From a virus (Duplodnaviria > Heunggongvirae > Uroviricota > Caudoviricetes), in the IMG/VR virus record IMGVR_UViG_2563366803_000003: 17,828 nt of DNA. One strand, given 5' to 3'. The notes beneath the pieces were generated by a model that was not told the origin of the DNA, did not search any database, and saw only the letters and a list, made by a program, of their open reading frames with translations. The stretch's first letter is position 1. Every line of letters begins with the position of its first letter. Below, in pieces: positions 6,258 to 14,143 of the stretch. The translations under genes were made by a program, and so were the position numbers.

Positions 6258-6529
6258 AAAAACTCCTGCCCGTAAGCTGGGCTGCTGAACATATAGAGAC
6301 TTCTGCGCGTATTCAGGCGGTGGATGGCCGCCGGTTGTCATAACTAAGCCGCCTCGTTGAAGCGACTGAGGTATGAGGTGTTGAGTTGATTTCAGCTGGT
6401 CACACCGACGTTCACGCGTCCGTTTCACCCCTCGCACTCCCCGGAGCCTGCCGAAATTCAAGCTGCGGATCTAAGCGGTCATCGCAACGGTGAATCAGGT
6501 GGTTGCCGTATCGTTGTGTTGTTGCGACA

Positions 6530-6600
6530 TGGTGATAATAGCTATTGCTATTGGTGGTATCAATACTTATTGCTATTGATTGATGTGTTTTGATATTAAC
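6530..6600 (-). promoter_or_regulatory. Predicted pL/oL: minus-strand -35 TTGATA (+ coords 6558-6563) and -10 TATTAT (6535-6540) with 17-bp spacer, overlapped by repeated GCTATTG operator-like motifs
   Basis: Hexamers and spacing read directly; motif TTGCTATTG (6545-6553, 6570-6578) is shared with the cI-cro intergenic region. Confidence 0.4.
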
Positions 6601-6712
6601 TGTTTGATAGCAAAAAGAATTAATTTTGTGACTTGCATCGCATAGCGATAACTGAAGGGAGGTTGTGGTGGTTTTTCGAACGGTTTGTGTGATGAGGGGA
6701 GGGGACAAAAGA

Positions 6713-6745
6713 AAACCCGGCACGGTGGCCGGGACGTTTTATTTC
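6713..6745. terminator. Bidirectional rho-independent terminator (stem cccggc...gccggg, flanked by T-runs on both strands); likely end of the cI operon (tImm-like)
   Basis: aaaacccggcacggtggccgggacgttttatttc immediately after the stop of the 6739-7251 gene. Confidence 0.65.
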
Positions 6746-7251
6746 AAAGAAAAATTATGACTAGCGTATCTTGGAAGAAATTCATATAGTGTTAATGTCT
6801 TAACGCCGTGAGAAGCAGCAGCATCCGGGATCATTATTCTTTTTTTAGGTTTGCCACCGGATGGTTTCTCATGGGTAATAATAGTATATCCATGTGTCAT
6901 CGCATGGGCTATTAAAAAAGCATCTGCTTTTTCATGGCTTGCAAAATCAAACTTTGCCTTTTCGGTAACATCTAATTTAGTTGACCAATTTATTAACTTT
7001 GCATAATTTTCTATTGAACTATGCTCATCTTCGAAGAATGATGATGGTAACTCTTCTTTAATCCATTTACACAATGGATCATCTTTTGCACATAGTTCTT
7101 TTTTTACAGCATTAATGCTATAAATCAGACCATTCATGTGTAAAGCGAGAAGAAAATCCCAAAATATTTTGCAATAATTGAAGTTATATGCAAAGTTTTT
7201 TGCCTCTATGAAGACATTACTATCAATTAAGAATTTTCCATTATGAATCAT
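6739..7251 (-). CDS. DUF4411-type PIN-like putative nuclease (170 aa); candidate effector of a two-gene defense/toxin module
   Basis: Size, N-terminal FLIDSNVFI strand with conserved Asp and later acidic residues fit a PIN-like fold; ATGA start/stop overlap with upstream metallopeptidase gene; AT-rich composition. Confidence 0.6.
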   Translation of the reverse strand: MIHNGKFLIDSNVFIEAKNFAYNFNYCKIFWDFLLALHMNGLIYSINAVKKELCAKDDPLCKWIKEELPSSFFEDEHSSIENYAKLINWSTKLDVTEKAKFDFASHEKADAFLIAHAMTHGYTIITHEKPSGGKPKKRIMIPDAAASHGVKTLTLYEFLPRYASHNFSLK

Positions 7252-8387
7252 AGAGATTCTCGTTTTTTATAAAATTCAACAACTGTATCTGCTTTTACAT
7301 TTAGCAGTACGCCTGCTTCCCTTAATGGTAATTGTTGAGACATTGCTTTGGAAATTATTATATTCGTAAGTTTTGGACTGTTACGAACAGGTAATGTGTT
7401 AAAGAAAGAACCACCATTAGATTCTTTTTTGGGCTTATTGTAAGCTTGATCTTTAATTATCTCCAAAGTGTTTCTTTCTATCAAATCTAATTGTAACGCT
7501 TTGATTGCACAAGCGAAATCACTAACCTTAAATAACTTAGAAACCTCTTTTACTCGATAATAATTATTATCGCTGGATGCATTAAGCCAGAAAGATTTGA
7601 AGAGATTATCAGGCATTAAGATTTCAGCAGCAACTTTATTACAAAAAGATTCTATGTTTTTTTCTGTGTCCCACCCAGAGACTCCATCGACTCCAAGCCA
7701 AAGATGAGCCACCTCATGAAATAATGTAAATACCTGCGCAGATAACGCGTCCGAGCTATTTACAAAAATGATCGGAGCAACGCTATCAGATATACAGAAA
7801 CCACGAAACTCTCGCGTGTCAAGTTTTCTTTTATTATTATTACCCACAACACCATTCTTGAAAACTAATACGCCAGTGTCTTCTATTAGTTTTGCCACTT
7901 TAGAAAAATAGCTCTCAAAAGTGACATTTTTTATCTCTTTTTGTATATCAAAATGTATTGTGTTTGCTATGTCTGTAGCAACAACCTTATAATTTAATTT
8001 TCTATTAAATTTAAATTTACCAATAAAATCGAGTGGATCATCATTACCATTTTCTCTTAAATAGTCTTTGTACCACTCAAGTTTATATTCTATATCATAG
8101 TAAACATCAAAAAAATCTTTTCCTAACTCACGGCTATTTATAGCTTGCCTTAAGTCAGGGATCTTGGGTTTGGCTGGAGTTGGTGGCGTTTCAAGAAATA
8201 AAAAACCGAAAGGGATTCCTCCAATTTTTGCCAGTTTTTCTGCTGCGGATTTACTTACCACTCCGTTAAGAAATTTATTAATCTTTTTGGGCATGACTTG
8301 GTCAGCAAGAGTTTCGATAGAAACTCCTTGAGAATTTGCTATCCAATCAATCATCTTCCTAGACAATTGAAATTCAACCGCTGCCAT
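7248..8387 (-). CDS. HTH + ImmA/IrrE-family (COG2856/M78-like) zinc metallopeptidase, 379 aa
   Basis: HExxH motif in FTLFHEVAHLWLG; N-terminal HTH-like segment (IDWIANSQGVSIETLADQV); AGGTGA SD upstream of ATG at 8387; translationally coupled to DUF4411 gene. Confidence 0.7.
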   Translation of the reverse strand: MAAVEFQLSRKMIDWIANSQGVSIETLADQVMPKKINKFLNGVVSKSAAEKLAKIGGIPFGFLFLETPPTPAKPKIPDLRQAINSRELGKDFFDVYYDIEYKLEWYKDYLRENGNDDPLDFIGKFKFNRKLNYKVVATDIANTIHFDIQKEIKNVTFESYFSKVAKLIEDTGVLVFKNGVVGNNNKRKLDTREFRGFCISDSVAPIIFVNSSDALSAQVFTLFHEVAHLWLGVDGVSGWDTEKNIESFCNKVAAEILMPDNLFKSFWLNASSDNNYYRVKEVSKLFKVSDFACAIKALQLDLIERNTLEIIKDQAYNKPKKESNGGSFFNTLPVRNSPKLTNIIISKAMSQQLPLREAGVLLNVKADTVVEFYKKRESL

Positions 8388-8516
8388 GTTATCACCTAGT
8401 TAAAAAAAACTATTATTCAACAATTATTGTTGTGCACCTGATAGCTAACGTCAAGCCTAATTTATTGCCTTACTACAGTAAGCTGAAAAGCGAAGTGCAT
8501 AATTTTGTTCTGATTT

Positions 8517-9209
8517 CTACCCATGCTTTCTATATGTCTGCGGCATGCTCCCGATGACTTTCCCGAAGATGAACACGCGGTTCATCTCGTCTTTCTCGAT
8601 CGGGTCCCACGGTGAGTAGCTCTTGTTATCAGAGATAACCAGCAGCTTATCCTTCATCATTTGCAGGCGCTTTACATGGGCGGTGTCGTCATACAGAAAC
8701 GCATAGATACCATCACCGTCGAAAGATTTAACAGTGATATCAACGAACAGAAGATCACCTGGTTCGATCGTTCCTGACATGCTGTCACCGCGTACGTTAA
8801 TGATGCGGATATTTTCTGCCTTCCTGCCATCGAACATGTGACGAGCATCGTCAAACGAGTACTCAACCGAGCGTAGAACTTCTACAAACTCACGGTTGAT
8901 GACTCCCGGCCCGGCACTCACTTCTATATCAAGAACGTCAATCTTGAAGTATTTGGGATGGTTGGCAGTAGGCTTCCCTAATTGTTGACCGTCATTTCTC
9001 ATCGGGCCTATGCCTGATGAGAGCCACTCTGTTCGAACACCCAATGCATTAGCTATTTCAACAATTTTTGTTGAGCCGCGCGCGTTGCCGCTTGTCAGTC
9101 TCCAGATTGTGGGTTGAGCTACCCCAGACGCCTTTGCAAGAGCGCCTTGAGACATTCCAGATTGTTCCATCGCTAGGTTTAAGCGATCAGCAAGAGTTTC
9201 TTTTTTCAT
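8517..9209 (-). CDS. cI: cI-type prophage repressor (N-terminal XRE HTH + C-terminal S24/LexA-like autopeptidase), about 230 aa, leaderless
   Basis: HTH segment LADRLNLAMEQSGMSQGALAKASGVAQPTIWRL; S24 peptidase signature around GDSMSGTIEPGDLLFVD with downstream Lys (HVKRL); ATG at 9209 lies 7 nt after a -10 hexamer. Confidence 0.85.
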   Translation of the reverse strand: MKKETLADRLNLAMEQSGMSQGALAKASGVAQPTIWRLTSGNARGSTKIVEIANALGVRTEWLSSGIGPMRNDGQQLGKPTANHPKYFKIDVLDIEVSAGPGVINREFVEVLRSVEYSFDDARHMFDGRKAENIRIINVRGDSMSGTIEPGDLLFVDITVKSFDGDGIYAFLYDDTAHVKRLQMMKDKLLVISDNKSYSPWDPIEKDEMNRVFIFGKVIGSMPQTYRKHG

Positions 9210-9319
9210 AAGTTTTAATTTATACGCTTGCGTATTGATGGTCAAAACACGTTTTGCTATTGTTATGATTAATACGCATTGCTATTATTTATTCATTGCA
9301 ATACCAATAGGAATTGATA
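9210..9319. promoter_or_regulatory. Divergent immunity control region. Predicted pRM on minus strand (-35 TTGACC at + 9240-9245, -10 TAAATT at 9217-9222, leaderless cI) and pR on plus strand (-35 TTGTTA 9260-9265, -10 TATTAT 9283-9288); operator-like repeats TTGCTATT and palindromes
   Basis: Hexamers and 17-bp spacings read directly; motif shared with 6540-6580. Confidence 0.5.
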
Positions 9320-9547
9320 ATGACAAATCAAACCATTCAACTCGCAATCAGTATTACAGGTAGTCAAAAACGACTGGCAGATCTATGCGGTGTAGCCCAA
9401 CCCACTGTTTGGCGTTGGCTACACGGTGGCGGAATTGATGCCCGCTATGTAATGAAAATTGTCTCAGCCACTGGTGGAAAGATTAAACCAGCAGATATTC
9501 GTCCCGACCTCGCACCATTGTTTAACGCGAGTAATTCTGCCGCCTAA
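9320..9547 (+). CDS. cro: Cro-like HTH regulator of the YdaS family (about 75 aa)
   Basis: HTH segment GSQKRLADLCGVAQPTVWRWL; AGGAA SD 6 nt upstream of ATG 9320; divergent from cI. Confidence 0.7.
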   Translation: MTNQTIQLAISITGSQKRLADLCGVAQPTVWRWLHGGGIDARYVMKIVSATGGKIKPADIRPDLAPLFNASNSAA

Positions 9548-12784: not shown

Positions 12785-13624
12785 ATGAAAAAAGCCATAG
12801 CATATATGCGATTTTCATCACCAGGTCAGATGTCTGGTGACTCATTAAACCGACAGAGAAGACTTATTGCTGAATGGTTAAAGGTAAATAGTGATTATTA
12901 TCTTGATACCATAACATATGAAGATTTAGGATTAAGTGCATTCAAAGGAAAGCATGCACAATCAGGAGCTTTTTCGGAATTTTTAGATGCTATAGAGCAT
13001 GGTTATATATTGCCAGGAACTACATTGTTAGTTGAAAGTCTGGACAGACTTTCAAGAGAAAAAGTCGGTGAAGCGATTGAACGTCTGAAATTGATTTTGA
13101 ATCACGGTATTGATGTTATAACTCTTTGCGACAATACAGTCTATAATATTGACTCTTTGAATGAGCCATATTCATTAATAAAAGCCATACTTATAGCACA
13201 AAGGGCAAATGAAGAAAGCGAGATAAAGTCAAGTCGGGTTAAATTATCATGGAAGAAAAAACGGCAGGATGCAATGGAATCAGGTACGATTATGACGGCG
13301 TCTTGTCCGAGATGGCTCTCCTTAGATGACAAAAGAACGGCTTTTGTTCCAGACCCCGACAGGGTGAAAACTATTGAGCTAATTTTTAAACTCAGGATGG
13401 AAAGGCGCTCATTGAATGCAATAGCCAAGTATTTAAATGATCATGCTGTAAAGAATTTCTCAGGAAAAGAAAGTGCATGGGGACCTTCTGTAATTGAAAA
13501 ATTATTAGCGAATAAAGCTCTGATAGGTATATGCGTACCTTCATATCGTGCAAGAGGGAAAGGGATAAGTGAAATCGCTGGCTATTATCCCAGAGTTATA
13601 TCAGATGATTTGTTTTACGCTGTA
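12785..13624 (+). pseudogene. ybcK: ybcK-like serine recombinase, truncated after about 280 codons by IS1
   Basis: N-terminal resolvase-type catalytic domain (AIAYMRFSSPGQMSGDSLNRQRR... with catalytic Ser), reading frame runs into IS1 left terminus at 13625. Confidence 0.8.
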
Positions 13625-13639
13625 GGTAATGACTCCAAC

Positions 13640-14143
13640 TTATTGATAGTGTTTTATGTTCAGATAATGCCCGATGACTTTGTCATGCAGCTCCACCGAT
13701 TTTGAAAACGACAGCGACTTCCGTCCCAGCCGTGCCAGGTGCTGCCTCAGATTCAGGTTATGCCGCTCAATTCGCTGCGTATATCGCTTGCTGATTACGT
13801 GCAGCTTTCCCTTCAGGCGGGATTCATACAGCGGCCAGCCATCCGTCATCCATATCACCACGTCAAAGGGTGACAGCAGGCTCATAAGACGCCCCAGCGT
13901 CGCCATAGTGCGTTCACCGAATACGTGCGCAACAACCGTCTTCCGGAGACTGTCATACGCGTAAAACAGCCAGCGCTGGCGCGATTTAGCCCCGACATAG
14001 CCCCACTGTTCGTCCATTTCCGCGCAGACGATGACGTCACTGCCCGGCTGTATGCGCGAGGTTACCGACTGCGGCCTGAGTTTTTTAAGTGACGTAAAAT
14101 CGTGTTGAGGCCAACGCCCATAATGCGGGCTGTTGCCCGGCAT
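13640..14143 (-). CDS. insB: IS1 InsB (the longer 194-aa ORF in the track is the out-of-frame upstream extension used for InsAB' frameshifting)
   Basis: Same frame and sequence as copy A InsB, with one amino-acid difference (H vs R). Confidence 0.93.

Follow-up and report, generated by a model that had tools for sequence, protein, structure and literature searches.

The immunity region of a lambdoid prophage, carried on a stretch of 17,828 nucleotides (IMG/VR virus record IMGVR_UViG_2563366803_000003; the whole stretch is called the window below), is very probably a lambda-style switch between lysis and lysogeny, with repressor operators at both early promoters, pR and pL, and a leaderless message for the repressor cI. 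The sites stand in a regular geometry over the promoters, they are conserved among related loci, and they co-vary with the recognition helix of the repressor. Protein would be expected to bind them, perhaps cooperatively and with looping between the left (OL) and right (OR) operators.

The right and left operators

The genes cI and cro are divergent and separated by a 110-bp gap, and pL lies on the far side of cI, with OL about 2.7 kb from OR. The sites, predicted promoters and genes concerned are the following.

8517-9209, minus strand: cI, 230 amino acids, with an N-terminal 434-like helix-turn-helix domain and a C-terminal S24 self-cleaving domain
9217-9245, minus strand: pRM, with -35 TTGACC (9245-9240), a 17-nt spacer and -10 TAAATT (9222-9217)
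9221-9236: OR3, TATACGCTTGCGTATT (TATACG-CTTG-CGTATT), overlapping the pRM spacer and the first 2 nt of its -10
9246-9261: OR2, AACACG-TTTT-GCTATT, abutting the pRM -35 and overlapping the pR -35 by 2 nt
9260-9288, plus strand: pR, with -35 TTGTTA (9260-9265), a 17-nt spacer and the extended -10 TGcTATTAT (9280-9288)
9271-9286: OR1, AATACG-CATT-GCTATT, overlapping the pR spacer and the first 4 nt (TATT) of its -10
9320-9547, plus strand: cro, 75 amino acids, with a YdaS-type helix-turn-helix (Pfam YdaS_toxin, 9.6e-15)
6535-6563, minus strand: pL, with -35 TTGATA (6563-6558), a 17-nt spacer and -10 TATTAT (6540-6535)
6537-6552: OL1, AATAGC-TATT-GCTATT, overlapping the pL spacer and the first 4 nt (TATT) of its -10
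6562-6577: OL2, AATACT-TATT-GCTATT, overlapping the pL -35 by 2 nt
6582-6597: weak OL3, GATGTG-TTTT-GATATT, 20 bp from OL2

An earlier note on this DNA had pointed to a short motif, TTGCTATT, twice between cI and cro and twice near pL, and had taken it for a repressor operator at both early promoters. The copies are indeed present at these places, and a search of the whole window finds exactly four, starting at 6545, 6570, 9254 and 9279, all on the plus strand. Shuffled sequence yields a mean of 0.96 matches, and at least four in 3 of 200 shuffles, a bare count that misses the spacing, as the copies form two pairs whose members are each exactly 25 bp apart. While the operator interpretation is supported by comparative and statistical evidence, the unit had been mis-specified: TTGCTATT comprises the two central bases and the right arm (GCTATT) of a 16-bp pseudo-palindrome, AATAsS-nATn-SsTATT. 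Likewise, the overlap with the -10 and spacer of pR and pL that the note described holds for the two promoter-proximal copies (6545 and 9279) and not for the other two, as the copy at 9254 shares 2 nt with the pR -35 and that at 6570 is located upstream of the pL -35.

With the 16-bp unit, the operator set turns out to be larger than the note had it; OR3, the weak OL3 and, in the cro leader, a possible fourth site had been overlooked. OR3 is a palindrome with the AATACG arm variant (its right arm reads CGTATT) and contains no GCTATT, and it is the predicted site of negative autoregulation. OR1, OR2 and OR3 start at 9271, 9246 and 9221, in 25-bp phase. OL1 is the best palindrome, its arms being perfectly symmetric, and is conserved beside TATTAT in the relatives. 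The pattern AATASSNNNNSSTATT, with at most one mismatch, has six matches in the window, all of which fall inside the two regulatory regions (five of the sites above and 9300-9315). Judged by its sequence, each operator region is composed of three to four 16-bp palindromic sites. The consensus AATAsS-nATn-SsTATT was drawn up with a constrained centre because the two central positions are constrained too among 194 distinct half-sites compiled from all related loci; position 8, which played no part in the selection of half-sites, is an A in 176 of the 194.

Dimers of cI would bind these pseudo-palindromes. If these sites work as those of lambda do, repressor on OR1 and OR2 would switch off pR and could stimulate pRM, repressor on OR3 would silence pRM, and OL1, OL2 and the weak OL3 would cover pL.

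Conservation and co-variation among related loci

I compared 90 homoimmune sources, consisting of the window and 89 loci that share the recognition helix and N-terminal domain of its cI, from E. coli viral contigs, Klebsiella phages, prophages of Kluyvera, Citrobacter and Raoultella, and the Salmonella phage BTP1; 80 viral contigs among these relatives have N-terminal domains that are 94-100% identical. The core of OR2 with the pRM -35 is present in 90 of 90 sources, and the core of OR3 with the pRM -10 is exact in 88, the exceptions being BTP1, in which one arm is changed (TATACG-CTTG-AGTATT), and one further locus, L060. Among 41 distinct ungapped intergenic sequences, the 24 columns of the OR1 and OR2 arms hold four minor-allele counts in total, whereas the 9-bp spacer between these two sites varies in eight of its nine columns and averages 12.2 minor alleles per column. 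Variation within OR1 is mostly confined to the central bases. Of 88 sources, 81 have an OL cluster, at 1.7-2.9 kb from OR depending on the cargo genes in between, and the spacing of OL1 and OL2 is exactly 25 bp in 76 of these 81. Elsewhere in the relatives, isolated matches to the motif are rare (only 11 in 690 kb).

More distant relatives show the same pattern. In two Klebsiella phages that are about 75% identical to the window over cI-cro, OR3, OR2 and the pRM hexamers are exact and OR1 is kept except for one central base in one of the two, while the spacers between the operators and the 7 nt before the ATG differ. Their OL DNA has no near-identity match to the window, yet it holds three good sites. 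The Kluyvera, Citrobacter and Raoultella prophages are conserved in the same manner.

As a control I used 81 heteroimmune loci (L008 and L091-L170), one a Klebsiella grimontii prophage and the other 80 viral contigs, with the recognition helix GVSQAAIQKIE. In these loci the motif is observed as 36 isolated matches in 574 kb and not once as a phased pair, whereas the 89 homoimmune loci contain 523 matches and 342 phased pairs. Conversely, the palindrome ACAAC-N4-GTTGT occurs 4.95 times per heteroimmune locus versus 0.20 times per homoimmune locus. As phased pairs and ACAAC-N4-GTTGT are split reciprocally between the two sets, the operator motif tracks the recognition helix across all 170 loci. 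The heteroimmune sister type has the same switch layout, with its 434-like ACAAC-N4-GTTGT operators 23-24 bp apart.

The four copies of TTGCTATT could alternatively stem from shared ancestry or duplication of the pL and pR cores, or be sites only for Cro or another protein, rather than operators for cI. The operator and -10 overlap (GC-TATTAT) is identical at pL and pR, and the copies are direct repeats on a single strand, as such an origin would have it. However, the copies at 9254 and 6570 are away from any -10, the conserved unit is a two-armed palindrome that OR3 shares without containing GCTATT, arms are conserved where centres and spacers drift, and the motif follows the helix of cI and Cro through the loci just described, so that I consider this explanation highly unlikely. 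Use of the sites by Cro alone, which the shared helix would permit, is not expected.

The start of the cI message

The protein encoded by cI is predicted to be a LexA-type self-cleaving repressor. Pfam recognises both halves (HTH_3, 1.8e-6; Peptidase_S24, 1.3e-18), the cleavage residues are present (Ala99-Gly100, Ser143 in GDSM and Lys180 in VKR), and a PDB search pairs the N-terminal domain with the 434 repressor (E 1.5e-5), in an alignment that begins at residue 6-8. The S24 half (8517-8969) also matches about 1500 further E. coli genomes at about 95% identity in which the N-terminal half is unmatched, as would fit mosaic exchange, with different DNA-binding domains on a common cleavage domain.

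On the minus strand, TTGACC, 17 nt and TAAATT are followed by 7 nt (AAAACTT) and the cI ATG (9209-9207), just as the earlier note had read them, and the absence of a Shine-Dalgarno sequence is likewise confirmed, with no GGA, GAG or AGG in the 40 nt upstream of this ATG. Pairing with the 3' end of 16S rRNA, calculated over the last 20 nt, amounts to -0.2 kcal/mol for cI versus -7.5 kcal/mol for cro. Each of the 42 distinct homoimmune upstream sequences has 7 nt between its -10 and the ATG, although these 7 nt occur in seven different versions, and in the heteroimmune type a -10 hexamer (TAAATT, TACATT or TAGATT) is located 6-7 nt before the ATG. All computational tests that were run agree with the note's three proposals, namely a leaderless cI message from pRM, a TTG that is in fact the -35 hexamer, and a motif that marks operators at both early promoters. 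For the leaderless message, there is no Shine-Dalgarno sequence, the 7-nt gap is fixed and the hexamers are conserved. As pRM ends 7 nt before the ATG and no ribosome-binding sequence intervenes, the lysogenic cI message is predicted to start at the A of ATG 9209, or 1 nt before it, and thus to be leaderless. There is precedent for this: the repressor of CP-933P, which belongs to a switch of the YdaS/YdaT type, was found to be leaderless by 5' RACE together with N-terminal sequencing (PMC8630535), and the same paper cites lambda cI as leaderless.

The list of open reading frames for the window starts cI at a TTG (9245), giving a frame of 242 amino acids. As the note had stated, this TTG is made up of the first three bases of the pRM -35 hexamer. 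It is barely credible that TTG 9245 is nevertheless the true start, with 12 extra N-terminal residues and a leadered transcript from further upstream. The window and all relatives examined have an open frame from this TTG to the ATG, and the RefSeq annotation of BTP1 uses the TTG. However, the extension lies over the -35, OR3 and the -10, and because these are conserved as DNA the frame stays open. Changes in it are mostly non-synonymous, including those in its last three codons (KLKL, KFEI, KLNI and KLKT in different relatives), while the first 40 residues past the ATG hardly vary. The TTG itself has no Shine-Dalgarno sequence in front of it, an equivalent conserved extension is lacking in heteroimmune relatives, the 434 repressor can be aligned without anything before the ATG, and RefSeq annotates cI of phage 4A7 from the same ATG. 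In BTP1 (NC_042346, 2625-3350; L090 in this set) the RefSeq start of cI is the TTG of the pRM -35 hexamer and adds 12 residues (LTINTQAYKLNI) before the conserved start MKKETL, so the mis-called start extends to a published annotation; in the D23580 genome annotation, cI has the same length of 726 nt.

Weighing the evidence

Several observations count against the switch as proposed here. Firstly, the consensus was drawn from the window's own sites, which makes the comparison of AATASSNNNNSSTATT with shuffled sequence (mean 0.58 matches, six reached in 0 of 200 shuffles) partly circular; the OL sites of the relatives and the heteroimmune control are independent of this window-derived consensus. 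The related loci are themselves phylogenetically linked, and the site counts overstate the number of independent observations. OL3 is a poor site in the window, matching 8 of 12 consensus positions. The earlier note called pRM near-consensus, which is apt for its -35 (5 of 6 positions) and not for its -10, where only 4 of 6 match (promoter-scan score 9/12), and promoter-like matches are unenriched in the region, with 13 found versus 9.6 expected. Activation of pRM may not transfer from lambda, as the centre of OR2 lies about 1.5 bp further away from the -35 than in lambda. Finally, no published binding or transcript-start experiments were found for this immunity type, and the start-site coordinate of BTP1 cI was not found in the supplements searched from the D23580 transcriptome papers, which give only gene coordinates and expression values. 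A full-text search with the operator strings returned nothing relevant, and the papers on BstA, LF82 and epsilon34 contain no definition of these operators.

The weak -10 and the frequency of promoter-like matches could also mean that TTGACC-17-TAAATT is a weak or inactive look-alike, and that cI is expressed mainly from a leadered transcript, started at an establishment promoter inside or beyond cro. A YdaT-type cII gene does follow cro, and YdaT of CP-933P controls an alternative start of the repressor operon (PMC9986795). I regard this as very unlikely, as hexamers, spacer length and position relative to the ATG are kept from genus to genus and in the heteroimmune type as well, an establishment promoter adds to a maintenance promoter instead of replacing it, and a leadered transcript would still be without a Shine-Dalgarno sequence. 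Moreover, the cI-bstA operon is highly expressed in BTP1 lysogens, from a single start site (PMC7067206). The preferred interpretation remains that of a leaderless cI message from pRM, with operators at pR and pL.

A candidate fourth site in the cro leader

One of the six matches to AATASSNNNNSSTATT lies in the cro leader.

9300-9315: candidate OR4, AATACC-AATA-GGAATT, at about +5 to +20 of the pR transcript, with one consensus mismatch

This candidate includes the Shine-Dalgarno sequence of cro (AGGA). Its arms are kept at 28-29 bp from OR1 in all homoimmune genera, while the intervening 13 nt vary, and the heteroimmune lineage has a half-site of its own over the cro Shine-Dalgarno sequence at the equivalent place (ACAAC-CTCC-GTAGT). 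A genuine fourth OR site within the transcribed cro leader is possible but rather doubtful, as the conservation could instead stem from the ribosome-binding site, an adequate alternative. If repressor or Cro does bind there, pR would be blocked at promoter escape, operator-virulent mutants could be harder to obtain, and a four-site OR would be common to a widespread family of enterobacterial prophages that includes BTP1 of epidemic Salmonella ST313.

Cro, YdaT and the genes behind cI

The recognition helices of cI (GVAQPTIWRL) and Cro (GVAQPTVWRW) are almost identical, from which I infer that Cro uses the same half-sites as cI. Downstream of cro follows a YdaT-family gene of the cII type (Pfam YdaT_toxin, 1.5e-29). 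The YdaT operator of the CP-933P type, TTGATT-N6-AATCAA, has three matches at up to two mismatches in the window versus 1.89 expected, which is not significant; as the helices of YdaT proteins vary (PMC9986795), a different YdaT site is possible. The only near match, TTGATAATGACAAATCAA at 9314-9331, is located over the cro start codon and not near the end of cro, where such a site would be expected; it is one mismatch away from TTGATT-N6-AATCAA, and its left arm varies in close relatives.

At the position of rexAB, between cI and pL, two cargo genes and a terminator are located.

6739-8387, minus strand: a helix-turn-helix/M78 (IrrE-type) peptidase of 379 amino acids and a DUF4411 protein of 170 amino acids, both recognised by Pfam
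6716-6733, both strands: a bidirectional intrinsic terminator from the terminator scan, with six G-C pairs and T-runs on either strand, ending the cI-cargo operon

The cargo genes are presumably co-transcribed with cI, and the cI message would run through both of them to the terminator. PADLOC reports RmrA-like (RosmerTA antitoxin) and capP-like matches for the M78 peptidase and no match for the DUF4411 protein. In homoimmune phages the same slot is taken by an ASCH-domain gene, GevT/GevA, HipA, a ParA-like gene or BstA.

The pL region

The two early promoters scored 10/12 (pL) and 9/12 (pR, with a TG before its -10) in the promoter scan, and pL reads toward kil, gam, bet and exo. The counterpart of the weak OL3 in the Klebsiella phages is, by alignment, a good site (GATAGC-AATG-GCTATT). 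A third OL site in strict 25-bp phase (6587-6602) has no match to the consensus, and the aligned site of the relatives stands 20 bp from OL2.

Upstream of pL a further element is kept in nearly all OL variants across genera.

6597-6621, minus strand: conserved element upstream of pL, AATTCTTTTTGCTATCAAACAGTTA

It contains an exact match to WATCAANNNNTTR at 6597-6609, with the exact IHF core consensus TATCAAACAGTTA; the window has three matches to WATCAANNNNTTR versus 1.26 expected, which on its own is not significant. An IHF site is also located upstream of pL in lambda. The overlapping stretch 6606-6621 agrees with the operator consensus at 9 of 12 positions, and the element may be either an IHF-type site or a fourth operator-like site.

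A short open reading frame at the start of pL (ATG 6530) was rejected as coding, as its ATG is lost in relatives. Between pL and kil (6258-6534, minus strand) there is no N-like open reading frame, and the pL leader measures about 190-270 nt. About 60 nt of it (6318-6376) are common to phi80, HK225 and Enterobacter phages at 85-97% identity and are unannotated there; this stretch could be a nut- or put-like element. Folding of the pL leader gave a z-score of -0.01 and hence no sign of structured RNA.

The prophage and its surroundings

The window is E. coli chromosome with a lambdoid prophage, of the DLP12/Perceval-like type, at the argU gene. Its other features are as follows.

1479-1555: argU, the tRNA-Arg(tct) gene
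1571-2734: integrase
Between the integrase and the immunity region, minus strand: exo, bet, gam and kil
To the right of the immunity region, in order: the YdaT-type cII, O, P, a ren-like gene and an EmrE-type transporter
Further right: a recombinase interrupted by IS1, then Q, a porin and lysozyme

An Rfam scan of the window returned tRNA only. With Megablast, the immunity region is found at 96.5-97.5% identity in ten sequenced phage records, among them 4A7, Lambda_4C10, D2, 1W, 3W, Perceval and three PhiR isolates, and 719 of 5426 complete E. coli genomes cover at least 80% of the cI-cro segment.

Two IS1 copies in direct orientation, at 1 to about 768 and 13640 to about 14407, are 13,639 bp apart; a 300-nt reference stretch is 100% identical in both, and both encode the IS1 transposase. 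One adjoins a truncated response-regulator gene (727-1299) and the other interrupts a serine-recombinase gene (12785-13705). The pair flanks argU, int and the entire immunity and replication region, and resembles a composite element or a deletion-prone segment.

Significance

This immunity type is very common, and it is also that of the prophage Perceval of E. coli LF82 and of BTP1 of the African ST313 epidemic clade, while its operator sequence has seemingly not been written down before. An operator definition allows homoimmunity to be predicted from sequence and provides precise targets for reporter and footprinting work. The analysis also corrects a repeated mis-annotation, in which a -35 hexamer is taken for a TTG start codon, and it locates the promoter that drives the varied defence cargo behind cI (BstA, GevTA, HipA or RosmerTA-like, depending on the phage). 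The lambda paradigm is confirmed rather than extended; the operator definition and the corrected start are useful, though they will not surprise a specialist.

Comparison with known switches

Among the closest known systems are the P22-like phages BTP1, ST104, SE1 and ST160, whose repressors have an N-terminal domain about 88% identical to that of the window and the same recognition helix. BTP1 Cro is 69% identical to the window Cro. In BTP1, OR2 is unchanged, OR1 and OR3 show differences in one arm and in central bases, and pRM is again TTGACC-17-TAAATT; the 25-bp phasing is the same, and there are an OL pair at 25 bp and a 7-nt gap (GAATATT) before the ATG. Unlike the window, BTP1 has a P22-like backbone with an N gene, the cargo gene bstA and a lambda-type cII. 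The ST104 repressor has been listed as a separate, unstudied specificity type (PMC2629481), and no published operator definition for the BTP1/ST104 type was found in the searchable literature.

CP-933P of E. coli O157:H7 (PMC8630535, PMC9986795) shares with the window a YdaS-type Cro, a YdaT-type cII and a divergent repressor; it has a short intergenic region with four phased palindromes, a pL-like promoter with the same operators, and cargo behind the repressor. In contrast to cI of the window, its repressor PaaR2 has no S24 domain, its half-site is GTTTAGTAA in 18-bp palindromes, and its cargo is the toxin-antitoxin pair paaA2-parE2.

The solved structure closest to the N-terminal domain of cI is that of 434, in which cI and Cro share a recognition helix as well. 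The 434 operators read ACAA-N6-TTGT, a consensus that ACAAC-N4-GTTGT of the heteroimmune sister type fits, whereas the window has the half-site AATAGC or AATACG in a 16-bp site, and a helix AQPTIWRL in place of the Gln-rich helix of 434.

Site for site, the arrangement over pR, pRM and pL matches the known layout of lambda. The differences are that the operators here are 16 bp long at 25-bp spacing, versus 17 bp at 23-24 bp in lambda, that the DNA-binding domain is 434/XRE-like, the pRM -35 strong (TTGACC), Cro of the YdaS type and cII of the YdaT type, that no N gene is present between pL and kil, and that a fourth site may exist in the cro leader. Shared with lambda are the divergent cI and cro genes, and a tripartite OR that lies over the pR -10, over the pR -35 with the edge of the pRM -35, and over the pRM spacer and -10. 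As in lambda, a second set of operators lies over pL, about 2.7 kb away, the stretch from cI to pL holds accessory genes and a terminator, the repressor carries a cleavage domain of the LexA type (Ala-Gly, Ser, Lys), and the pRM -10 ends a few nt before an ATG that no Shine-Dalgarno sequence precedes.

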